64,000 nt of DNA, from the NCBI GenBank assembly GCA_000004985.1, contig GG738870.1. One strand, given 5' to 3'. The notes under the pieces were generated by a model, which ran no database searches, had not been told where the DNA came from, and saw only the letters and a program-made list of their open reading frames with translations. A program made the translations under genes and the position numbers. Within the stretch, counting starts at the first letter, position 1; each line of letters opens with the position of its first letter. This document shows, piece by piece, positions 13,244-62,460 of this stretch. The DNA comes from Naegleria gruberi. Lineage: Eukaryota.

Positions 13244-13754
13244 ATGGCAACTTGGTCATCAGGTTTATTTGACTGTGTTGATGATACAAACTCGTGCATG
13301 TATTCATTTGTTTGTACTCCTTGTGCAATGGCAAATGCTAAATCACATGTTGATGGATCTTTTTGGATTTTCAATTGTTTGATATCAACTTTCATTCCAT
13401 GTATTGCTTCACCTGCTTATAGACATACAATTAGAAGTAGTTACGGAATCAAGGTTTGTGTTATTCTTCTTGTTACATTCCGATAGAAATTTTAATTTTT
13501 ATTCGAATGTTGTTTTTTATTCGAAATTTGTGTGATGGAAATTTGTATTTAAATATATTATAGGGAAATATTACTAATGATTGTGCTACTGGAGTGATTT
13601 GTTCGTGTTGTTCAACAGCTCAACTTTTGAGAGAAGCTCAAGGTTAGTAGTTTGATGAAATATTTATTTATTCGAAAATTTGGATAAACTAATGTAATGC
13701 GATGTTGTTTTTTTGGATATAGCAAGAGGACCAAGTACATATTCCATGTTCTAA
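13244..13754 (+). CDS. PLAC8 / FW2.2-like cysteine-rich protein. Three exons: 13244-13453, 13564-13642, 13723-13754
   Basis: PLAC8 signature: WSSGLFDCVDDTNSCMYSFVCTPCAMA, then YGIK|GNITNDCATGVICSCCSTAQLLREAQ across the first intron. The second donor is GTTAGT at 13643. Exon total is 321 nt = 106 aa. The first donor, GTTTGT, is weak. Confidence 0.6.
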
Positions 13755-13940: not shown

Positions 13941-16730
13941 TTACATTCCATTACTACTTATTGAACTTGCAGTGTTTCCACTACTTGCACTACTACTTGC
14001 ACCATCTGATTGATTCTTCAATGCAACTCTATAGGCCAAGTGTAACCAAGGAGTGTAGAGATTCTCACCACTCATTGAGCTCAATTCAAAGTAGAGCATA
14101 TTGTTGGTGAAGAGTTTGATTCTGGAACCACCATAGGAATGAAGGAATTGAGTGATTCTTTCGTTGGATATTTTAGGTTCCAGATCAGATTTCAATCCAC
14201 AAACGAACACGTAAATATCCTCATTTTGTAAGCACTTTTCAAATAGATTTCTATTTTCTAACAAGTTAAGCTCTGGTGATTTGGTTGCTTGTTGTTTGAA
14301 AATGTACTTGTCGAATAGCTGTAACATATCATCGAATGATTCTGGTCTACTCAAATCAAAACAGAGCATGATTGCTTTGCAAACTTTCAAATAGAGTGGA
14401 ATTAAATTAAGGAATCTTTTCATACCAGAAGTGTCCCATACACTCAGAGAAATGATTGGATTGTACCTTGTCATGATATAGCTGTCAGCCTCTGATGAAA
14501 TTGAATCATCATCTTCCTGAATTTCTGCTGTACCCGTTGGTGTTGGCAAATTAACTTTCACATGTTTCATCAAGTAGGTAGCGCCAATAGTTGATTCAAT
14601 ATATTCAATCTTTTTCACTCGACTTCTATGTTCTACTGTATCTAAATGATTTGAGATGGCCTCCTTCAACATGTAGACCCAAGAGGATTTTCCAGAGGTA
14701 GAATCACCAATGAGACAGACCTTAATTTCGATCATACTCAATCGATATTCTAAACTTTGTGTATTTACATTGTTATGGAATGCACAATAGTTCATCCATG
14801 GTCCATTTCTATAACCCTTATAGATGGATTTATAGATATTCTTCCAACTACTTAGAACCATGGTTGTTTTTTCCTGTGAGAATGGTGAACTCTCTATCAA
14901 CTCTCTGAGGGTAATGTGATCGATGAAGGATGATCCTTGTTTCTTCTCTCTGTCATCAAAGGTTTCAGCAAATTCTGAACTGCTACTCAAATCTGACATA
15001 CTCAAGTTATTGAGATTGTATGGATAGCTAATCCACAACAATGGATGTTCTGTCCAAATGTAGTGGAAAGATCTGCTGACACGACTCAGGTCAATCAAAT
15101 CTGGAGCTGATAGATAGGATAATATGTGGAACATGATTTCATATGGTACGCTCTCTTCGAGTTGACTCAATGAAATCGATCTTTTACCAAAATCACAATT
15201 ATCCTTCCATCCACCATATTCAAAACGAGCATTTAACACTTTTGAATAGCATTCTCTTCTACATTCTCGAGGGGATTTTGGGATCTTCTTTTCTGATGAT
15301 TTCAAATCGTGTGGGCTGGTCTTCTTTTCTGATGAGGGTGTTGGAGTTTTTGGAGTGGTAGTAGAGGGGTTAAGAGTTGTGGAGATTGCAGAATCAGATC
15401 GAAGGGGAGTAATTGGAGTGGGATTATAATTTGAATTCATGGAAGGAGAAAGAAGGTATGAATTCTGTTGAGTGGAAGAAGAAGGAGATTGAGAGGAACC
15501 AAACATGAGGAATGCTCTTCCTCTTGGTCTTTGAAAAGAATTTGGGGAGGACAGGTAATTGGAAGAGGCGATTGAAGTGGAAGGAGAGCCGAGTGTGGTA
15601 TTGGCCAAAGACGACATGATCATTGTTTCATTTGAGATTACAGTGGAGGAGGTTGTCAAGGTGGTACTCACAAGAGAGGGCATTGTAGTGGCTGAGGCAC
15701 CTGTTGTTTCTACAGTGGAAGTGCTACAGCTTGGTGATATTCCTTTTTTACCCATGATCTCTCGTTTCTCATCAGAATTGGATTGAATTTGTCGGGGTGA
15801 TGATTTGGTTGGTTGCTCGCAATGTATAAAATAATCGTCGTCTATTATTTGTGGATCTGATTCCTCTTCATACTCATCATCATTATATTGAGCTATGAAG
15901 GGAATTACTGTTTTTGGAGGAGAGAGTCTCTTATTCACAACAACTGATTCAAACATTGAGAAGGCAATTTCATAAAATTGTGGATCATTTTCTGGATCCA
16001 AATGTATGGTCCAATCAAAGTTTTCCTTTTCAAAATATGAATCAATCAATTGATGCATTCTTCTATTATAATAGTCGTAGTGAGATTTTGGATACAGGCT
16101 CAAACATTGGTGATCAGCGTGATGATGCACAATTTCACCAATATCATTTTTAGAAATTATAGCACTATCATCCATGTGGCTTCTCAAATAATTCCTCGAA
16201 GTTCTGAATGATGTAAAAACCCCAGCACTTGAATCAACTCCTGTTCTACTTGTTGTTACATCTGTATCTTCTTCTCCAATCAGATCTTGTCCAAAGTCCC
16301 TTCTTGAAAAAGAAGTGGCCAGCAAAGTCAACCCAGGACCTCCTTTCTTTTTAATTTCTCTTCTCTTTGATTGGATATCCATTCCACTACTCGTTGTTGG
16401 TGTAGATTGTTGTTCATTCACTAGTCCTCTATTTTCATTATTCGTTGATGATAACATGTTGATTCCTTGAGGAGTTGAAGGTTGTTGTTGTGGTGAATTA
16501 TTCATCCCTGTTGCTTGATTTTTTCTGTACATTTGATTAACTCGTAAGCTTCCATAATATGATCCTTTAGAAGGACTATTGGCTGATGAATTTAACTGAT
16601 CATTGTTCATAATGATCGGTGATGAAGATGGATTATTGGAAGGATGGGGTGTTGGTATCGATGAAACTTCTTTACTTTCATCATCCTGGGAATTTGAACC
16701 AGAAAGTGCTGATGATCCGTGTTGTCCCAT
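13941..16730 (-). CDS. Large protein (929 aa) combining a Ser/Thr/Asn-rich N-terminus, an F-box and a C-terminal atypical Ras/Rab-like GTPase domain
   Basis: One exon. N-terminal MGQHGS is a possible myristoylation signal. F-box: VPYEIMFHILSYLSAPDLIDLSRVSRSFHYIWTEHPLLW. GTPase G1 KVCLIGDSTSGKSSW; G3 WDTSGMKRF with Met in place of the catalytic Gln; G4-like VCGLKSDL; G5-like LSSMSGEN. Confidence 0.75.
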   Translation of the reverse strand: MGQHGSSALSGSNSQDDESKEVSSIPTPHPSNNPSSSPIIMNNDQLNSSANSPSKGSYYGSLRVNQMYRKNQATGMNNSPQQQPSTPQGINMLSSTNNENRGLVNEQQSTPTTSSGMDIQSKRREIKKKGGPGLTLLATSFSRRDFGQDLIGEEDTDVTTSRTGVDSSAGVFTSFRTSRNYLRSHMDDSAIISKNDIGEIVHHHADHQCLSLYPKSHYDYYNRRMHQLIDSYFEKENFDWTIHLDPENDPQFYEIAFSMFESVVVNKRLSPPKTVIPFIAQYNDDEYEEESDPQIIDDDYFIHCEQPTKSSPRQIQSNSDEKREIMGKKGISPSCSTSTVETTGASATTMPSLVSTTLTTSSTVISNETMIMSSLANTTLGSPSTSIASSNYLSSPNSFQRPRGRAFLMFGSSQSPSSSTQQNSYLLSPSMNSNYNPTPITPLRSDSAISTTLNPSTTTPKTPTPSSEKKTSPHDLKSSEKKIPKSPRECRRECYSKVLNARFEYGGWKDNCDFGKRSISLSQLEESVPYEIMFHILSYLSAPDLIDLSRVSRSFHYIWTEHPLLWISYPYNLNNLSMSDLSSSSEFAETFDDREKKQGSSFIDHITLRELIESSPFSQEKTTMVLSSWKNIYKSIYKGYRNGPWMNYCAFHNNVNTQSLEYRLSMIEIKVCLIGDSTSGKSSWVYMLKEAISNHLDTVEHRSRVKKIEYIESTIGATYLMKHVKVNLPTPTGTAEIQEDDDSISSEADSYIMTRYNPIISLSVWDTSGMKRFLNLIPLYLKVCKAIMLCFDLSRPESFDDMLQLFDKYIFKQQATKSPELNLLENRNLFEKCLQNEDIYVFVCGLKSDLEPKISNERITQFLHSYGGSRIKLFTNNMLYFELSSMSGENLYTPWLHLAYRVALKNQSDGASSSASSGNTASSISSNGM

Positions 16731-18032: not shown

Positions 18033-18113
18033 GCAGGGGTTCCCGAGTGGTCAAAGGGGGTAGACTCAAGTTCTACTGCGCAAGCTTCGTGGGTTCAAAT
18101 CCCACCTTCTGCA
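18033..18113 (+). tRNA. tRNA-Leu (anticodon CAA), class II with long variable arm
   Basis: Acceptor stem gcagggg/cttctgc with two G-U pairs. D-arm cccgagtggtcaaagggg. Anticodon stem gtaga/tctac around the loop ctCAAgt. T-arm gtggg-ttcaaat-cccac. Discriminator A, followed by ATTTT, a Pol III terminator. Eukaryotic type, 81 nt. Confidence 0.85.
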
Positions 18114-18564: not shown

Positions 18565-20916
18565 ATGAATTCATACGAAAGTTTAAAAACTATTCGAATC
18601 CCTGTGGAGGTGAAGAAGCACGTTTCTCATGGATCAACAGCTTCTACCAACACATCACTAGAAGATCAAATAGTTCACCAACTAATGAATTACAGTGAAG
18701 ATGCCGTTGTAAAGGGCTACCTTTCCCTCCACGTGCCACTTCCACCTAATCTTGTAAATTATTCGAAAGATTTCTCAACCGATCCACAAACTTTAGAACA
18801 ATTCATGAGTGATTCCAATCCAAGAATTGAAACTTGTAAGCCACGCCATCAAGATAGACAACACCAACATGAAATTAAGAGAGTTTCTGCATCGATCAAG
18901 AGCCAAGTTGAAAAACAAAGTCAACCAGAAAACAAGGTTGACAAAAGTCAATGGATTGCCAGGGCAATGAAGAGAAATCCACATATATTGGCTTTATTGG
19001 AAAGGTCTCGTCCACTGAATAATCAACCATCCCTATCAATGATCAAACCAAGACAATCATCAACAAATTCTAGTCAACCGACAAGTGAAACTAATTCTCC
19101 AAGAAGTACTGCCTCTCCAACAGTTGCCACTGATCACAATCCAGGAGGAACTGTTAATATGGATCTACTCTCTTCAAAGGGAAGAGATTCAATGAAGTCA
19201 TCACTCACAGAATCACCAAACTCTAGCTCTCATAATTTGCTCAAGTACATGTCAGCTGTTCAAGTTGACCAACAGATTGTGACCAATATTGAAGAAAAGA
19301 AGAGCATTTTAGACTATTCCACCTTCTTGGGAACTGTTGAAAATAAGGAAGTTCTCCCTCGTGAAGGATTACTTCAAATCATTTATCAATTCATGGCTCA
19401 GAAAGGTTATTACAATACCATTAAGGAAATGGAAAAGGAAACTGGTATAAAATATAATGGTTTCAGATCTGAGAAGGCTTCTAATAGGGATACTCTGATG
19501 GAAACTCTACTAAGTCTCGGAATTCAAGATGCTGAAAATCCATATCAATTACCACCTTCAGATTTTGTGAATGTTAACAAAGATAGTGAGATTCCAACGG
19601 CAAGCATTCATCATCATTACGATCCAAAGTTCGTCAAGGAAATGCAAATACCATTGTGGGAAGAGTTAGCTCAATCTGATGAAGATTCAATTGTAATGGA
19701 GGGAAAGGAAGTCAAAGCAGCAACCCTTAATAGACTGATTGAAATGGTGACAAGCACTGAAGCAGATACCAAGATTGGAATTCAAAGTTTCTTGGTGACT
19801 TATCGTTCTTTCACTGATCCTGGAATTCTTTTGAAGAAATTATGTGAAAGATATCAAGTTCCAAATCGTATTCCATCCAGTGAGAGAATTCAGATCCAAT
19901 TGAGAACTAGTGCTGTTTTCATCAAATGGATTGAAGATTACTTCTCATGGGATTGGAATGATAACATGATTTATGAATTCTTGCTATTCATTGACAAGTA
20001 TATTATGAAAGATAAGAAAATTGTGGGAGACAAACTCAAACAGAAATTAGCTCAAAAATTAGTTTTCAAGAGTAAGGACAATACTCTGGTATTTAGTGAA
20101 CAGTTTATTTATCCAGAGGTTCCAAAAAATGTATTCTCTTCCAAGTTATCTATTTGGGATATTAAGGATGAAGAGTTGGCAAAGCAATTGACATTTATGG
20201 ATCATAACATTTATAGAAATATTGAACCACATGAATTGTTGGATTGTGCTTGGTCAAAGGCAAATCTTAGACATAGAGCAAAGAATATTCTTCAATCCAT
20301 TTCGTATGTAGAAACCCTATCAAATTGGTTAGAATGTCAAATTGTAAGAGAAGAATCTTTGAGAGAAAGAAAGATGAAACTTTCCAGATTGATGAAACTT
20401 GCCATTCTCATGAACAAGCTCAACAATTTCAATTCTCTAATGGCACTGTCTTCCACCTTCAACAAATCCTCAGTACATCGTCTCAAATTTACAATTGCAG
20501 AAATAGACGAAACTCTAAAAAAGGAATTTGATGAAGCCATTGCCATTGTCGATCCAAAGAAACAGAAAAACTATTCCACTCTTCGTAATCACATCAAGAA
20601 AGTTGCCAAACCTCCACTAAATGTCTTCCTAGGAGTTTATCAAACCGATCTCATCATGATTGAGGAAGGAAATCCTGATTTCACATCCAATTCCAATGAA
20701 AGAACATTAATTAATTGGAAGAAGAGAAGATTAGTAGCAACTACCATATCAGAAGTGATGGATTTCAAGAATCCACCGTATAACATTAGACCAGTTCAAC
20801 AAATTCAAGAATTATTGAGGACAACTTTTGAAAATCATGACATTACTGATGTGTATGATATTTCAATGCAAGTTGAGCCTAGAAATACTGTTAGAAAAGA
20901 AGATTTAGTTCCATAA
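18565..20916 (+). CDS. Ras guanine-nucleotide exchange factor with LisH-like motif, RasGEF N-terminal (REM) domain and CDC25-homology domain, 783 aa
   Basis: CDC25 motifs: ELAKQLTFMDHNIYRNIEPHELLDCAWSK, NFNSLMALSSTFNKSSVHRL, VFLGVYQTDLIMIEEGNPD. REM-like: EGKEVKAATLNRLIEMVTS. LisH-like: LLQIIYQFMAQKGYYNTIKEMEKETG. One exon. Confidence 0.85.
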   Translation: MNSYESLKTIRIPVEVKKHVSHGSTASTNTSLEDQIVHQLMNYSEDAVVKGYLSLHVPLPPNLVNYSKDFSTDPQTLEQFMSDSNPRIETCKPRHQDRQHQHEIKRVSASIKSQVEKQSQPENKVDKSQWIARAMKRNPHILALLERSRPLNNQPSLSMIKPRQSSTNSSQPTSETNSPRSTASPTVATDHNPGGTVNMDLLSSKGRDSMKSSLTESPNSSSHNLLKYMSAVQVDQQIVTNIEEKKSILDYSTFLGTVENKEVLPREGLLQIIYQFMAQKGYYNTIKEMEKETGIKYNGFRSEKASNRDTLMETLLSLGIQDAENPYQLPPSDFVNVNKDSEIPTASIHHHYDPKFVKEMQIPLWEELAQSDEDSIVMEGKEVKAATLNRLIEMVTSTEADTKIGIQSFLVTYRSFTDPGILLKKLCERYQVPNRIPSSERIQIQLRTSAVFIKWIEDYFSWDWNDNMIYEFLLFIDKYIMKDKKIVGDKLKQKLAQKLVFKSKDNTLVFSEQFIYPEVPKNVFSSKLSIWDIKDEELAKQLTFMDHNIYRNIEPHELLDCAWSKANLRHRAKNILQSISYVETLSNWLECQIVREESLRERKMKLSRLMKLAILMNKLNNFNSLMALSSTFNKSSVHRLKFTIAEIDETLKKEFDEAIAIVDPKKQKNYSTLRNHIKKVAKPPLNVFLGVYQTDLIMIEEGNPDFTSNSNERTLINWKKRRLVATTISEVMDFKNPPYNIRPVQQIQELLRTTFENHDITDVYDISMQVEPRNTVRKEDLVP

Positions 20917-43156: not shown

Positions 43157-45971
43157 ATGCCCAGACACCATGTTGAATTATTCACACCAGAATTTAGGCA
43201 ATTGATTTTGAACAGTTGCACCCAAAACGAAAGCTCATCCGTATCATATTCTCCATCATTTAATTATGAGGAAGTTAATCATGAAACAGAACCACAAATT
43301 CGTTTGTCTATCCGATTCAAACCAGAAAGTACAATTGCAATAATTGAAAAAAGATTGCTCCGAGCTGATTTGGATATCATATTTAAAATGTATAATTTAA
43401 AAAGAATTTTTGGATTTCAAGTTTTGAATAGATTTGATGAGGGAAGTTCTAAGAAATTATTATCCGAATGTGATTTCTCTCAAGCACAACAAATGGCTGA
43501 AATTATTGAATACATGTTCGTGAAAGATCTCTCTAAACAATTATCCAATCATATCAAAGTACGTAAATGACAATATAGTATAATAATCACTGATTTTTTC
43601 AGGTTAAAATGGCTACCATTAAAGATGTGACAACTATCGTAAACGAGGTCAATCAATGGGTTACAACAACACTAGCCCAATTCAATAATCAAGAAGAAAT
43701 AGTCTTAACTCCAATTGAAAAAAGCTATTCATATTTCTCTGATAAACCATACAGTAAGTACTTACTATTTTTACATATAATAGTTTACACATTTCAGAAG
43801 CCAATCAAAACAAAATTACCAAAAAGTCAGATAATTACGAGCTTAATACCATCAAATTTATGCATAAGGGCTCATTTTCCATTGAACAATTTTTTTCTAA
43901 TAAGATTTTCGAGAAGCAATGTATTACAGAGAAGCAGCCTAACCCTCTTTCTAAAAGATTTTTACACAAATCTGTGTTTATTAGATCCAAAAATTGTATT
44001 GTAACATATGGAGGGTTTGCAATTGGAAAAGGAATCACTGACGACATTATCAAATTTGATTTGGAACAAAAGAAAGCTACTCAATCAACAAGTAGAAAGG
44101 GAAGAATCTTTCACACCTTTGATTACCTTCCACACTTGAATAAGATGGTAGTTTATGGAGGAATTGAAAAAACTGGATCCATTTCCTCTGACTTAATTAG
44201 TATTTCAATGGACTTTTCTTCGGATGTCAGAAGTAATGAGTTTTTACCACCTCTATGCTGTCACTCTGCAGTTACACTTTTTGACACTCTCTACATATTT
44301 GGGGGTTTTAATGGAAGCACCTCAAAATATTCCAATACCATGTACTCATTACATATTCCAACATTAAGTATCAAATCTTCAGCATCCAAATTTTGTCCGA
44401 GTGAAAGAATTGGATCTGCAATGACCATAGTTGGGGATAATATTTTTGTTTTTGGAGGAATGGATTCTAATGGAAATATTCTCTCAGATATTTACAGATA
44501 TAACATTTCACAAGATTTATTCCATCCTATCTTATCTGATGAATATGCCATTAATCCAAAATTATGCTTTTCTAATATGTTTATTATAGGAAATAATATC
44601 TACCTATTTGGAGGTTGGAATGGTGTAGAATGGAATAATTCTCTTTTTGAAACAAGCAAAGAAGAATTTAAATGGAAAATAGCAAAAGGTTATACTAATA
44701 GTATTAGTTCTGATTTTAATTCATATAATCCTATGAGTAGTATTGTACCTGTATCAGAGAAAATAATTTACTTACTAGGAGGATTGGACTTACCTTTCCC
44801 TTTCATTTCAATACTGGACACATTTGCTACTTTAGCGACTGGAAAAATTGACTTTACAATTTCAAATACAAAGCCAAGTTACAGAATATTTCAACACAAA
44901 CGTCAAACAGATGAATTTTTACTCTCACAAACATACTTGAATTGGTTTAAGAAGCAAATTCCAGAAGAGTGTGACGTGACCATTCTTGTTAACATCCCAA
45001 ACCAAGTTGAGCAAGAATTATTTTATGGATTCAAGTTAGTTCTTGTAAGATCACCAGTATTGTCAAGAAAAATATTGGAACAAGAAGGCCATAATAAGTG
45101 GCGTAATTTGAAGCATGGCAGCCATGCTGTTATCCTCTTGGATGATTTCCCATCAAACGTAGAAAATTTGAGAAGGTCATTCAATTCAGTTTTGGAATAT
45201 TTATATTCTGGATCCTTCTCAACAAAGGATTTAAAGTCTGAAGATTATTCAGACATTTACAAGGTGGCCTGTTACTTAGAAATACCACTACTTTACAAAG
45301 CTCTTGATGGAACACTCAATGTTGATGATTCACTGGAAACAAAGAATCTATTATCCACTATAACCATTCAACTTGACCATTTATTCAGCCCATGTGAAAC
45401 CATTTCGAATATTGAAGATTTCATGACAACTATTGATGAAAATCCAATTGCACCTGGAATGGTGAAAATCATTGCCCCTACCTCATTAGATAGCTCAACA
45501 TATCAATCTATTCTTGTCCACAAGTTTATTTTGACTCAAAGATGTAGATATTTTAATGCTGTGTTTGAAATGAACTTCCTAGAGTCTCATACTAGAGTTG
45601 TTTTAATTGAGCAGAATACCTTCAAAGGTCTATTGTCAATTTTACATTTTGTTTACACTGGTAATATTGTGGAGCTAGATCTTTCCAACGCAGTAGAAAT
45701 CTTCATGTCTTCATTCCAATTTGAACTGGAAGAACTAATGGAAGCTTCTAAACTATTCATTAGAGAACATGAATTTGATGTATTTACCACTATTCGACTA
45801 TTAGAGATTTGTGAAACAGTAAATGATAAGATCATGCAAGATTATTGCAAGTATAGCATTGCTAAACGTTACGAAATAGTTATGAAACATGATCCATCAG
45901 CACTTGATAATTTAAGTAAGGTATCTAGAGTGGATATAAATGATTTAAGAAAGTCTGTTTTGAAGCACTAG
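43157..45971 (+). CDS. Kelch-repeat / double BTB(POZ) protein. Three exons: 43157-43558, 43603-43753, 43807-45971
   Basis: Donors GTACGT at 43559 and GTAAGT at 43754; the phase-1 junction forms Lys across PY|K|ANQNK. Kelch blades: CIVTYGGFAIG, MVVYGGIE, LYIFGGFNG, IFVFGGMD, IYLFGGWNG. BTB domains: DVTILVN...FKLVLVRSPVL and ILVHKFILTQRCRYFNAVFEMNF...LSILHFVYTG. Total 905 aa. Confidence 0.65.
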
Positions 45972-59327: not shown

Positions 59328-61727
59328 ATGGTCAACAGTGAATTGAACAAGCTTCCATTCCATGAACAAGAATTGATCGAAAAACATTTGACCAATATGA
59401 ACTTATTGGGAGGATTGGATCATTATGACCATGCTGGATATTTAAAGTACTCCGATAGGATGGGTAATTCATCATCTGGCTCTGAGATTTTCATTCATCA
59501 AGACTTGTTGAAAAACAATAGTAATGTTTTGGAGATGAATCACACAAGCAATTCAAAACAATTAAGTTTTGCCGATCCTGATATTCGTAAACAGTTAATG
59601 GATGAATATAATAAGCATATTTTAAATCCTTACGGTAATGGTCTTTCTAGATTGTTTGATTGTGTGGATTTGCACGCTAATCAAAGACCAAATGATATTG
59701 CCATTCGTGAATATAATACTGGAGAAGATGTTACTTGGTCTCAGCTTCAGCTCAGTAGTAGAGCTATTGCTGCCAAAATGTTATCTTTGGGATCCTTTAA
59801 AAAGGGAGATATCGTTGTTACTCATCTTCCTCTATTGAAGGAACATTTGTATTTTATGTATGCTTGTTGGAGATTGGGAGTCATTGTTGTTCCACTCGAT
59901 TTACGTTTGAAAGATAGTGAAATTTGTGTTTCTTTGGATAAATTATTAGGCATTACACCAAATGATACAAAGGGAAATGGAAAGGTTAAAATGTTTGTCT
60001 TTTTGGGTAAAACTCCAATTCATGATTTCCGTCCTATCATTGACCAAGTAATGGATAGATTTGTTTCAAAAATTCCACATTGGATTCAATTCCAAAAGGA
60101 AAAGGAATTTATCATGCCACGTGCTGTTAGTGTTACTGACTTTTTGTCTGATGCCAAGAGTGTGTATATTATGAACAGAATTAAGGAACTGTCACTTGGA
60201 ATGATCCTTCCATCCTCTTTAGTATCAACAGTCGCTTCAATGGAAGCACAATGCACACGTCGTACACCAAATCTCATTATTTTCACAACTGGATCAACTG
60301 GTGTTTCAAAGGCCGCTATTCTTTGTCATGAAGGTATTTTAATGCAAAATTTGGCTACCAAAATTGCATTTACAGGTATCTTCCCTAATCCACACAAATT
60401 GGTCAACTTGTGCAACCTTCCTCCATCACATGTTGGTTGTCTCACTGAACAAGTTTTGACAGCCATCTATGGAGGTGGTCAATTGGTTATTATTCACGTT
60501 TTTGAACCAGAAAAATCCCTTGATGCAGTTCAAAAGTACAAATGTAACCTTATTGGACAAATTCCAGCCCTTTTCTCAATGGTAAGTTTTTTTAAAATGT
60601 TCAATGAACAAAATCTAACTCTATTAGGAATGGGCTTTACCTAACTATAAAAAATATGACATTTCAAGCTTGGGAATGGCAATTTATGGTGGTCAAGCTG
60701 TTACTAAGCCATTCTTGCATAAAATGCAAGCTATGGCTCCATATATTGGTTCAGGATTGGGACTTACTGAAACAGCTGGTTTTTGTACATATACTCCAGT
60801 TGGTATTTCTGTTGATCAAATGTCTCTAAGTATTGGATTTGATGCTCCTTTCTGCCCAATTTCAATTCGTGATCCTCCAAGAAAAGTCACTTGTCCAAGA
60901 ACAGGCAAAGTCTTCTTAATTGCAGGAGAAGAAAAAAAGCCAGGAGAAGTAGGTGAAATTTGTCATAATGGACCTCAAATCTTCCTTGGTTATTTGAATG
61001 ATTCCAAGACAACAGGTGAAACTATCATTCCAATAGATTTGGATACAGCAGCTAAATTGGATTATTCAAAGATTTTGAATTATGATCCAATTGATGGAAA
61101 TTTGAATGGAACAAACAAATCAGGAATTGTCAACCAAACCCACCCAGTTAATTATTATAATCTCCTTTTATATACTGGTGATATTGGTTCATATGATTCA
61201 ACAGGTCTTCATTTTGCTTCCAGAAGAAAATTCATCATCAAGCCAAAAGGATATCAAGTCTTCCCAGGTGAAGTTGAAGAACATTTGGAACAACACTTTA
61301 AATTATTGGGAGCTCCTCAAAGTTTGAAGAATGGAAAGCTTTGGGATATGGTAAAGTCAAGATTTGAGGAACAAAAAGATGAAAGCGCTGTTTTAAGAGT
61401 TGGTGTTGTTGGTGTGGAGCATGAAATTTATTCTGAAGCTGTTGTTGCTGTCGTTGAATTGAAGAAAGACCTTGTTGAGCTTGCCAAACAACACACAACA
61501 GATCCAGAACGTTGGTTCGATTTAATTTTGAATGAGAAGGAAATTATAGAAGCATGTAAGGATATTGCTGCTTATAAGAGACCTTCCTATGTTTTCTTCT
61601 ACCTCCTGGAATGGATATGCCTCTCAATAGAACAGCCAAGATTGATTATTTGGCCTTACAAGATTTTGCCAAGAAACAAGCTGCTGCTTTGGAACAAAAG
61701 AAGAAACTTCGTTACTCGTCACTCTAA
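59328..61727 (+). CDS. AMP-dependent acyl-CoA synthetase/ligase. Exons 59328-60581 and 60628-~61600, with an apparent frameshift near 61596-61608 before the last ~40 codons
   Basis: AMP-binding motifs IIFTTGSTGVSKA, YTGDIG, GYQVFPGEVE. GTAAGT intron 60582-60627 joins FSM|EWALPNYKKYDISSL. The conserved tail LPPGMDMPLNRTAKIDYLAL...* (stop at 61725-61727) is in a different frame from KRPSYVFFY. Confidence 0.6.
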
Positions 61728-62460
61728 GAAGAATATTAAAATTATTAACACAAAATATCTTATTGTAAACCATCTTCTTTCATAAAGAGTTTCACTTGTA
61801 AAAACACCTTGCAATATTAACATTAAATAATTCACTCTCTTCAACTCTTCCCATCACAATAAGGTTTAGTATATTTAAAGAACCAACCTCAAAAAAATAC
61901 TCATCATCTAAACTTCCTTAAAAACAAACTGAGTATTTATCAATATCCAACTCTCTTCAAAGCATTTCACAATTTTATACAACACCTTCACAACATAATT
62001 AATCAACATCTGTAGTTGTATAACCTATTACCTTATTTCTATTTTTATCAATTGTGTATGAAAAAATACCCTTCCTTTTATTGCTCAAAGGCAACTTCTT
62101 CCTGTCTTGCCTCTTCTGTTCTATGAATCTTTTATTACTCCGTGATTTGGCTTTTTCGGTAGCCATTTCGATGACAAGTCGTTAAAGTGATTCTCCAGCA
62201 TAAATTTGACGTCTTCGCTGCTCAAAAGGATTTGTGCTCAAATTCCGTCTAAAAATAAAATCAAAAAAAAAACACCTAGAAAACCAACGTAAATTTTCTA
62301 CAACGGTTTTCTTCTAGACAAGTACTGCGACTCTAATTTTACGATTACTTTGCGTGAATAATTTATTATTGGCTAATTTCATCATTCAACGGATTTTCCA
62401 TTATACAACAAATTGGAAGTAAAAGGATTTTAGGATAAACGTTTATCATAAAACATCAAA

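Follow-up and report, generated by a model that had tools for sequence, protein, structure and literature searches.

RabX13c of Naegleria gruberi, an F-box protein with a Rab-derived GTPase-like domain and a long N-terminal arm predicted to be disordered

Described F-box GTPases and GTPase-fused cullin adaptors

The closest described relatives of the protein analyzed here are the RabX13/RabX14 paralogs of Naegleria, all of which have an F-box upstream of the GTPase (PMC8296547), and for these F-box Rab paralogs GTPase-dependent ubiquitination in Naegleria has been raised as a possible role (Herman et al. 2021, PMC8296547). The combination of an F-box and a GTPase had been described earlier in TbFRP of trypanosomes (Euglenozoa), in which a FYVE domain is followed by an F-box and then by a Ras-like GTPase (PMC3593210). 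TbFRP is the only F-box-GTPase that has been studied experimentally; its F-box was left without an assigned role, with turnover of TbFRP favored by the authors, who found no ortholog in Naegleria (PMC3593210). No paper was found in a full-text literature search for the architecture of F-box plus Rab-like GTPase domain, and nothing of use came from a literature search on Skp1 in Naegleria.

Small-GTPase domains are also fused to other cullin adaptors. Rab40 unites a Rab-type domain with a SOCS box, a Cul5-adaptor motif that lies C-terminal to the GTPase, and its Rab domain recruits the proteins that are ubiquitinated; Rab40-Cul5 ligases attach ubiquitin to proteins that partner with this domain (PMC8129794, PMC9070665). 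RhoBTB, of Rho ancestry, has an atypical, poorly hydrolyzing small-GTPase domain followed by C-terminal BTB domains, and its cullin is Cul3.

The window, a 64,000-nucleotide stretch of the genome of N. gruberi NEG-M, contains at 13941..16730 a single-exon gene of 929 codons plus stop, located by the ORF listing and an exact-sequence look-up; this gene, and with it each feature given below, lies on the minus strand. The look-up showed the 929-aa product to be identical to XP_002676828.1 (EFC44084.1, D2VGL1_NAEGR), which RefSeq annotates as "rab family small GTPase" and which has been catalogued as an F-box-containing Rab paralog and as the ortholog of N. fowleri RabX13c (Herman et al. 2021, BMC Biol, PMC8296547; Table S8; Additional files 4 and 10). 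The protein is the N. gruberi ortholog of RabX13c (hereafter RabX13c), a member of a heterolobosean expansion, covering Naegleria and Willaertia, of Rab-derived proteins in which an F-box precedes the GTPase domain. Because XP_002676828.1 is named in that study, the architecture of F-box plus Rab-like domain was already catalogued. A preliminary description made from the DNA letters had recognized no characterized family with this architecture; the novelty that it implied is contradicted by the RefSeq annotation, by the naming of the accession as an F-box Rab paralog, and by the earlier report of the combination in TbFRP.

Few of the RabX13/RabX14 proteins show 1:1 orthology when N. gruberi is compared with N. 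fowleri, and RabX13c is among them. Its 929 aa far exceed the 300 to 440 aa or so of its paralogs because it has a predicted disordered arm of about 480 aa, which occurs in no paralog and was previously undescribed, and because its GTPase domain contains three insertions. RabX13c also differs from the other members in having lost the Lys of motif G5. It can be likened to TbFRP, going by the description of the latter, in that an F-box precedes a C-terminal Rab-like GTPase that has no CaaX end, and both proteins come from Discoba. Since the C-terminal CaaX is absent, membrane targeting would in both cases fall to the N-terminal part, which in TbFRP is a PI3P-binding FYVE domain, whereas RabX13c has no FYVE domain and a predicted myristoyl anchor instead. 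Like Rab40 and RhoBTB, RabX13c fuses a small-GTPase-type domain to a cullin adaptor; however, its adaptor, an F-box that presumably pairs with Cul1, lies on the N-terminal side of the GTPase, and its GTPase shows Rab affinity, in contrast to that of RhoBTB. Rab40 would offer the best mechanistic analogy. FYVE, SOCS-box, and BTB domains were sought in the N-terminal arm with Pfam and NCBIfam, and none was matched; over RabX13c as a whole, Pfam gave no match to FYVE even at E values up to 10, none to BTB, and none to the SOCS box, with only 14 residues following the GTPase domain.

Conservation of the RabX13c gene

The N. fowleri ortholog, XP_044565615.1 (954 aa), was 50% identical over the full length and 65% identical to a C-terminal query, and a Na/Ca-exchanger gene lies downstream of RabX13c both in the N. 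gruberi window and in N. fowleri. A third ortholog, a metagenomic protein of 765 aa, has its parts in the same order as RabX13c, in which a Met-Gly start, the predicted disordered arm of ~480 residues with four conserved islands, a helix, the F-box, a helical linker, and the Rab-like domain succeed one another from the N to the C terminus. The single exon proposed in the preliminary description is borne out by one uninterrupted ORF that equals the RefSeq gene model and by the single ORFs of the N. fowleri and metagenomic orthologs; the fusion, which it had wished to see checked for conservation, is likewise retained, with the F-box preceding the GTPase in both orthologs. Transcript support for the single exon was also sought, and the second member of the sequence cluster (P0004) was a metagenome contig, not a transcript. 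When the supplements of Herman et al. were searched for expression of the N. fowleri ortholog, its gene id was present in the GTPase table only. A functional connection with the RasGEF gene that lies in divergent orientation at 18565-20916 was considered and rejected because the gene upstream of the N. fowleri ortholog encodes a TPT-family transporter and not a RasGEF.

Compared with the environmental contig P0004, which is 97.8% identical, RabX13c showed 15 synonymous codon changes and 1 non-synonymous change, and the flanks were more diverged than the coding sequence. Assuming that ~75% of random changes are non-synonymous, the estimated P for this 15:1 count is ~1e-8. The RabX13c gene is under purifying selection. 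Relatives of the F-box Rab-like proteins were present in Willaertia magna, and the F-box was kept in tens of paralogs across three Naegleria species and Willaertia.

Parts of the protein and changes in the GTPase motifs

The protein starts with MGQHGS (aa 1 to 6; 16713..16730), which fits the N-myristoylation consensus (Gly2 and Ser6). All three RabX13c orthologs start with MGQ, and an MG start was found in 20 of 28 family representatives versus 7 of 122 other GTPase matches. N-terminal myristoylation of RabX13c and its family is putative, being read from these starts. The region that follows (aa 7 to 486; 15273..16712) is predicted to be disordered and is rich in Ser, Thr, Pro, and Asn, as judged from the AlphaFold2 (AF2) model and composition (S 18%, T 9%, P 7%, N 7%), with pLDDT values of <50 for almost all of aa 1 to 480 in the full-length model; no Pfam family matched this region. 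Alignment of the three orthologs revealed four conserved islands within it: LLATSFSRR..DLIGEED (aa 136 to 155; 16266..16325), YPK[ST]HY.Y (aa 213 to 221; 16068..16094), DWTIHLDPENDPQFYEIAFSMF (aa 239 to 260; 15951..16016), which AF2 models as a low-confidence helix, and RPRGRAFL (aa 401 to 408; 15507..15530). A conserved helix, RRECYSKVLNARFEY (aa 491 to 505; 15216..15260), was found upstream of the F-box in the same alignment and in the full-length AF2 model.

The F-box (aa 524 to 570; 15021..15161), within which LSYLSAPDLIDLSRVSRSFHYIW is located, was delimited by Pfam (match at aa 527 to 566), AF2, and the family alignment. It scored 37.4 bits with F-box-like PF12937 (Pfam curated cutoff, 24.3) and 32.2 bits with F-box PF00646 (cutoff, 20.5), and it was modeled as a short helical bundle with a pLDDT of ~80. 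The pattern LPxE[IL]..IL.[YF]L...[DE]L..L..VS..F..[YI]W was kept in the family alignment of RabX13c and 27 relatives. A helical linker recognized by ortholog conservation and AF2 (aa 598 to 665; 14736..14939) connects the F-box to the GTPase domain.

The Rab-derived GTPase-like domain (aa 666 to 915; 13986..14735) was identified by Pfam, PDB sequence matches, Foldseek, and the family profile. It scored 43.4 bits with Ras PF00071 (Pfam curated cutoff, 21.6) and 36.0 bits with Roc PF08477 (cutoff, 27); since the scores of both domains exceed the curated cutoffs, neither the F-box nor the GTPase match is due to chance. The AF2 model of aa 515 to 929 had a mean pLDDT of 76, with values mostly of 88 to 97 in the conserved GTPase core blocks and lower values in the inserts, which comprise three insertions at roughly aa 690 to 712, 727 to 757, and 805 to 838 of low model confidence. 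In Foldseek, this model matched GTP-form Rab8 (Rab8-GppNHp) with a target-normalized TM score of 0.80, and Rab7, Rab6, and Ran were also matched. RhoE and Rabs were among the PDB sequence matches of the domain as a single-sequence query, the best being to Rnd3/RhoE over WDTSG plus switch II and over CFD[IL]SRPE[ST], and the catalytic Gln is replaced in both Rnd3/RhoE and RabX13c. Rnd proteins are constitutively GTP bound. A Rho/Rnd ancestry, suggested by these single-sequence matches, was nevertheless rejected: the family profile fitted Rabs best, with E values of 1e-34 to 1e-30 against Rab1, Sec4, Rab35, and Rab7, and placed RabX13c nearer to Rabs than to Rho proteins.

Several GTPase motifs are retained in the family alignment. 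They include the intact G1 or P-loop, GDSTSGKS (aa 675 to 682; 14685..14708), which is one residue short in the metagenomic ortholog (GDC-SGKS) and belongs to a GxxxxGK[ST] pattern near-universal across the 28 aligned family representatives; switch I/G2, STIGATY (aa 713 to 719; 14574..14594), with its Thr kept; and the DxxG of G3, WDTSGM (aa 765 to 770; 14421..14438). The equivalents of the Rab hydrophobic triad, Tyr719, Trp765, and Tyr780, are also kept, and RabX13c shares the family signatures CFDLS..SF, G[LM]KxD, and YFELS. In G3, however, the sequence, the PDB matches, and the family alignment all place Met770 at the position of the catalytic Gln, and 27 of the 28 representatives lack Gln after DxxG. 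G4 is GLKSD (aa 845 to 849; 14184..14198), with Asn replaced by Leu846 and with Lys and Asp kept, in line with the family form [L/M/T/F]KxD among the same representatives. G5 is ELSSM (aa 882 to 886; 14073..14087); its Lys has been lost in the RabX13c orthogroup (Met886 in N. gruberi), whereas the paralogs have E[LV]S[SAT]K. In classical Rab/Ras mutants, replacement of the corresponding Asn by Ile weakens nucleotide affinity, and the Asn-to-Leu change in G4 of RabX13c is similar. Compared with a canonical Rab, RabX13c therefore has the fold, the P-loop, the switch I Thr, and DxxG, and lacks the catalytic Gln, NKxD, and a C-terminal Cys motif. The Ser-rich C-terminal tail (aa 916 to 929; 13944..13985), which ends in ...SSISSNGM, contains no Cys, and RabX13c therefore has no prenylation motif; a CaaX or CC end was found in none of the family members. 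Rab40, in contrast, is prenylated.

On these motifs, the Rab-like domain looks GTPase-dead: loss of hydrolysis residues, the mark of a pseudoGTPase, is seen in the change of Gln to Met. Given Leu in place of the G4 Asn, the missing G5 Lys, and the shortened P-loop of the metagenomic ortholog, the domain may also be incapable of nucleotide binding and may have a switch surface unlike that of an active Rab. The preliminary description had thus correctly recognized an F-box followed by a small-GTPase fold, as Pfam scores, the AF2 model, and Foldseek agree, as well as the missing catalytic Gln (WDTSGMKRF, aa 765 to 773) and the altered NKxD (GLKSD), both of which are present and are matched by the family alignment. 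Its S/T/N-rich stretch of about 470 aa before the F-box was roughly right (~480 residues, rich also in Pro), and the MG start that it pointed out is a family trait, with myristoylation itself inferred. Its term pseudo-GTPase is apt for the lost hydrolysis residue but goes beyond the sequence, since no change affects G1, the Thr of switch I, DxxG, or the Lys and Asp of G4.

Candidate roles of RabX13c

The best explanation, to which we assign a probability a little short of even, is that RabX13c is a membrane-anchored SCF receptor whose GTPase-dead Rab-like domain binds partners. N-myristoylated RabX13c would sit on a membrane, the acyl group replacing the absent C-terminal prenyl anchor, and its F-box would recruit Skp1-Cul1-Rbx1. 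Presumed unable to hydrolyze GTP, the Rab-like domain is proposed to be locked in a GTP-like state or to be independent of nucleotide, and its switch and interswitch surface would bind effector-like partners, which would be presented for local ubiquitination; the islands in the disordered arm could act as extra docking or regulatory motifs. RabX13c would then do for CRL1 what Rab40 (SOCS box) does for CRL5 and RhoBTB (BTB) for CRL3. The SCF reading, put forward also in the preliminary description, agrees with the speculation of Herman et al. (2021) on F-box Rab proteins. A broader proposal, which we hold more tentatively, is that the heterolobosean F-box Rab-likes, RabX13c included, make up a third class of cullin-RING receptors fused to a small GTPase, with an independent evolutionary origin (CRL1/SCF beside Rab40/CRL5 and RhoBTB/CRL3). 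In this class, substrates on a particular membrane would be chosen by a Rab-like domain that is myristoylated and GTPase-dead; in RabX13c, the ~480-aa arm and its four conserved linear motifs would provide a second level of docking or regulation.

The F-box might instead serve the removal of RabX13c itself, with the Rab-like domain a working membrane regulator and SCF driving its rapid, regulated turnover by auto-ubiquitination. F-box proteins are commonly auto-ubiquitinated, and the long disordered arm could supply ubiquitination or initiation sites; the authors of the TbFRP study, moreover, connected its F-box with fast proteolytic degradation and a dynamic pool of the protein (PMC3593210). 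We nevertheless consider this unlikely: a GTPase working as a normal switch would give no reason for the catalytic Gln and the G4 Asn to be lost throughout the family, and the persistence of the F-box in tens of paralogs is no less consistent with a receptor role. Somewhat less probable again is a cullin-free complex, in which the F-box would recruit Skp1 alone and act in membrane traffic without Cul1 or ubiquitination. The Rab derivation of the GTPase-like domain and the predicted membrane anchor are in keeping with such a role, and yeast Rcy1-Skp1, which acts in endosome-to-Golgi recycling, provides a precedent, but outside the F-box RabX13c shows no sequence resemblance to Rcy1.

RabX13c could be degenerating and without function, in a gene family that turns over by birth and death, its GTPase a relic becoming a pseudogene, as several putative pseudogenes in the RabX13/RabX14 clades (Herman et al. 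2021, PMC8296547), the three degenerate G-motif residues, and the shortened P-loop of one ortholog might suggest. The intact 929-codon ORF, the ratio of synonymous to non-synonymous changes (15 to 1) against the near-identical environmental contig, the 1:1 ortholog in N. fowleri, the third ortholog, and the conservation of islands even within the disordered arm make this very improbable. It is more improbable still that the annotation merged a low-complexity N-terminal gene and an adjacent F-box-GTPase gene into one ORF. The paralogs, with 300 to 440 aa and an MG start shortly before the F-box, would be compatible with such an artifact; however, there is no in-frame stop and no MG-type start just upstream of the F-box in RabX13c, and in three species the arm, with its MGQ start and four islands in constant order, shares one reading frame with the F-box-GTPase part.

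The gene, the architecture, and the functional speculation on RabX13c were already annotated or published, and the genome-scan finding therefore adds little. What is new is descriptive and consists of motif changes throughout the family, the Met-Gly start, the disordered arm and its islands, purifying selection, and the Willaertia relatives. If the SCF-receptor reading is true, then Rab-type recognition modules would have been coupled to the ubiquitin system repeatedly in Naegleria and Willaertia, in a convergent parallel to Rab40 and RhoBTB. This would constitute a lineage-specific route of membrane-protein regulation, and it could bear on interactions of these amoebae with their environment and hosts, N. 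fowleri included.

The RabX13c gene and its product

The locus at 13941..16730 (minus strand) is a single uninterrupted ORF of 929 codons with an in-frame stop upstream of its first ATG. An exact-sequence look-up matched the product to XP_002676828.1 / EFC44084.1 / D2VGL1_NAEGR, annotated "rab family small GTPase [Naegleria gruberi strain NEG-M]", and matched five neighboring ORFs to exact N. gruberi proteins of the same 418-kb scaffold; the identity of the gene, the N. gruberi orthologue of N. fowleri RabX13c, is near-certain.

Pfam searches placed F-box-like PF12937 (37.4 bits; cut-off, 24.3) and F-box PF00646 (32.2 bits; cut-off, 20.5) at aa 527-566, and Ras PF00071 (43.4 bits; cut-off, 21.6) and Roc PF08477 (36.0 bits; cut-off, 27) in the C-terminal third. 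An AlphaFold2 model of aa 515-929, computed from a 28-sequence family alignment, had a mean pLDDT of 76, with the conserved GTPase-core blocks mostly at 88-97, and its Foldseek matches were GTP-form Rab8 (target-normalised TM, 0.80), Rab7, Rab6, and Ran. The F-box and small-GTPase architecture proposed in a preliminary description is confirmed, with scores far above chance, and the strings quoted there were found: the F-box core LSYLSAPDLIDLSRVSRSFHYIW (inside aa 524-570), WDTSGMKRF (aa 765-773), and GLKSD (aa 845-849). Single-sequence PDB matches, across switch II and strand beta-4, were to RhoE/Rnd3 and many Rabs, and the family profile matched Rab1, Ypt1, Sec4, Rab35, Rab7, and Rab8 at E values of 1e-34 to 1e-29; judged by these similarities, the GTPase domain is Rab-derived and its Rnd3 likeness is local.

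The N terminus, MGQHGS (aa 1-6), fits the N-myristoylation consensus and is followed by an S/T/P/N-rich arm (aa 7-486), predicted to be disordered because its pLDDT is <50 throughout. Within the arm, four islands are kept in 3/3 orthologues: LLATSFSRR..DLIG[ED][ED] (aa 136-155), YPK[ST]HY.Y (aa 213-221), [DE][WY]TI.LDPEND.QFYE[IL]AFS[ML]F (aa 239-260), and RPRGRAFL (aa 401-408). A conserved helix (aa 491-505) precedes the F-box (aa 524-570), which has the canonical pattern [LV]P.E[IL]...IL.YL...DL..L..VS..F..IW; then come a helical linker conserved between orthologues (aa 598-665), the GTPase domain (aa 666-915), which contains three insertions modeled at low confidence, and a Ser-rich tail without Cys (aa 916-929).

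The 929-codon ORF recurs on a metagenome contig that shares 97.8% identity with the window and whose flanks diverge more than the ORF and contain indels. Between the two ORFs, 15 codons differ synonymously and 1 non-synonymously (P455A); by our own arithmetic, the probability of at most 1 non-synonymous change in 16 is ~1e-8, assuming that about three quarters of random changes are non-synonymous. This excess of synonymous codons indicates strong purifying selection on the gene, disordered arm included, and contradicts the reading of RabX13c as a decaying gene. The alternative that the ORF represents two separate genes is also contradicted: in an alignment of three species, the parts from the MGQ start through the GTPase domain keep the same order in one ORF each, which argues against two-gene read-through.

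GTPase motifs and membrane anchor

RabX13c has an intact G1 (GDSTSGKS), switch-I Thr (STIGATY), G3 DxxG (WDTSG), and G4 Lys and Asp. The catalytic Gln is replaced by Met770, the G4 Asn by Leu846, and the G5 Lys is replaced as well (ELSSM, versus E[LV]S[SAT]K in paralogues). Gln after DxxG is missing from 27 of the 28 aligned family representatives, those that keep DxxG having D, H, N, S, K, E, G, M, or V at this position, and G4 across the alignment is [L/M/T/F]KxD; on this comparison, replacement of the Gln and the G4 Asn is a trait of the whole family and not decay of the RabX13c gene alone. Without the Gln, small GTPases lose both their intrinsic and their GAP-stimulated hydrolysis, Rnd proteins being an example, and an N-to-I change in NKxD weakens nucleotide affinity in Rab and Ras mutants. 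The Rab-like domain is almost certainly GTPase-dead. The earlier term "pseudo-GTPase" fits in a broad sense only: G1, G2, G3, and the G4 Lys/Asp are kept, and the domain may still bind nucleotide. Alignment to Rab1A equates the Rab hydrophobic triad F45/W62/Y77 with Tyr719/Trp765/Tyr780, so an effector-type surface is plausibly retained. In the metagenomic orthologue P0001, the P-loop is one residue shorter (LLGDC-SGKSS) than in N. gruberi and N. fowleri, and the identical protein is encoded by two independent contigs (L001, 550-2847; L002, 477-2774), which may point to a looser constraint on nucleotide binding within the RabX13c orthogroup.

A CaaX or CC C terminus was found in no family member examined. 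A Met-Gly start is present in 20/28 family representatives versus 7/122 other GTPase matches, and several of the remaining 8 representatives are visibly truncated models. N-myristoylation in place of prenylation can reasonably be predicted; the myristoylation start suggested earlier holds as a consensus match, with Met-Gly starts enriched in the family, and the modification itself is putative.

Candidate mechanism and neighboring genes

RabX13c may be a myristoylated, membrane-resident SCF receptor, a candidate mechanism to which, as a whole, we give slightly less than an even chance. The protein would reside on a membrane and make ubiquitination local to it; its Rab-like domain, either locked or independent of nucleotide, would capture effector-like partners for ubiquitination, and the disordered arm could supply additional linear docking motifs. 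RabX13c would be a CRL1 analogue of Rab40-Cul5 (PMC8129794, PMC9070665) and of RhoBTB-Cul3. As rivals, the F-box might chiefly drive turnover of RabX13c itself, a role suggested for the trypanosome protein TbFRP (PMC3593210), or RabX13c might, by analogy with yeast Rcy1, form a cullin-independent Skp1 complex.

Divergent to the RabX13c gene lies a RasGEF_N and RasGEF protein gene (XP_002676728.1; 18565-20916, plus strand), and the 1.8-kb intergenic stretch separating it from the RabX13c 5' end contains a tRNA-Leu(CAA) (18033-18113, plus strand). The adjacency is probably coincidental, because in N. fowleri a TPT transporter gene occupies the equivalent upstream position. Close downstream of the RabX13c 3' end, an 80-aa ORF (13244-13486, plus strand; PLAC8, 41.6 bits; cut-off, 34.4) is probably a single exon from a gene for a small Cys-rich protein. 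A Kelch-repeat beta-propeller and BTB protein (43860-45971, plus strand), whose Kelch-region Pfam matches include the Attractin/LZTR1 beta-propeller model, would give the window a second gene of the cullin-adaptor type; in animals, LZTR1 acts as the adaptor that links Ras-family GTPases to Cul3. In addition, an MMR_HSR1-type (50S ribosome-binding) GTPase (XP_002676734.1; 30645-31688, plus strand) is annotated merely as "predicted protein", and two adjacent ORFs that encode the N- and C-terminal portions of one AMP-binding enzyme (59328-60644 and 60670-61785, plus strand) are probably one gene interrupted by a short intron or frameshift.

Prior catalogue and family range

Herman et al. 2021 (BMC Biol, PMC8296547) compiled a catalogue of the Ras superfamily in both N. 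fowleri and N. gruberi and reported a conserved N-terminal extension in Rab-like proteins, with an F-box in at least some, and the F-box as the commonest additional domain among the GTPases of Naegleria (Rab, Rho, Ran, G-alpha). Their Table S8 marks XP_002676828.1 "F-box" and gives RabX13c a 1:1 orthologue, most neighboring entries having none ("x"). An F-box with a Ras-like GTPase was described earlier in TbFRP (FYVE - F-box - GTPase; PMC3593210). The architecture is therefore not new, contrary to what the preliminary description implied; the exact gene had been annotated and named by orthology, and it had appeared in print accompanied by the same functional speculation (PMC8296547). That description was right on architecture, and its mechanism is a reasonable proposal.

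Two full-length orthologues emerged from an exhaustive profile search: P0011 (954 aa; N. fowleri XP_044565615.1), with 50% identity over the full length and 65% to the C-terminal query, whose gene lies on a 913-kb contig and, like RabX13c in the window, is followed downstream by a Na/Ca-exchanger gene; and P0001 (765 aa; 54% identity to the C-terminal query), a single ORF on both its metagenome contigs. The F-box and Rab-like layout recurs in ~25 further representatives of 300-440 aa; those with a named source belong to N. gruberi, N. lovaniensis, and Willaertia magna. One product, P0034 (732 aa), has two F-box and three Ras stretches and represents either F-box-Rab units joined in tandem within a single ORF or a merged gene model. 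Willaertia magna (GCA_041937235.1) has several relatives (P0030, at L006 1001-2248, and P0031, P0047, P0057, and P0084), one of 925 aa with an MG start, F-box, and Ras domain. The RabX13/X14 clades had no close relatives outside Naegleria in the 2021 paper (PMC8296547); the Willaertia proteins therefore extend the F-box Rab-like family past Naegleria, beyond what Herman et al. could yet see.
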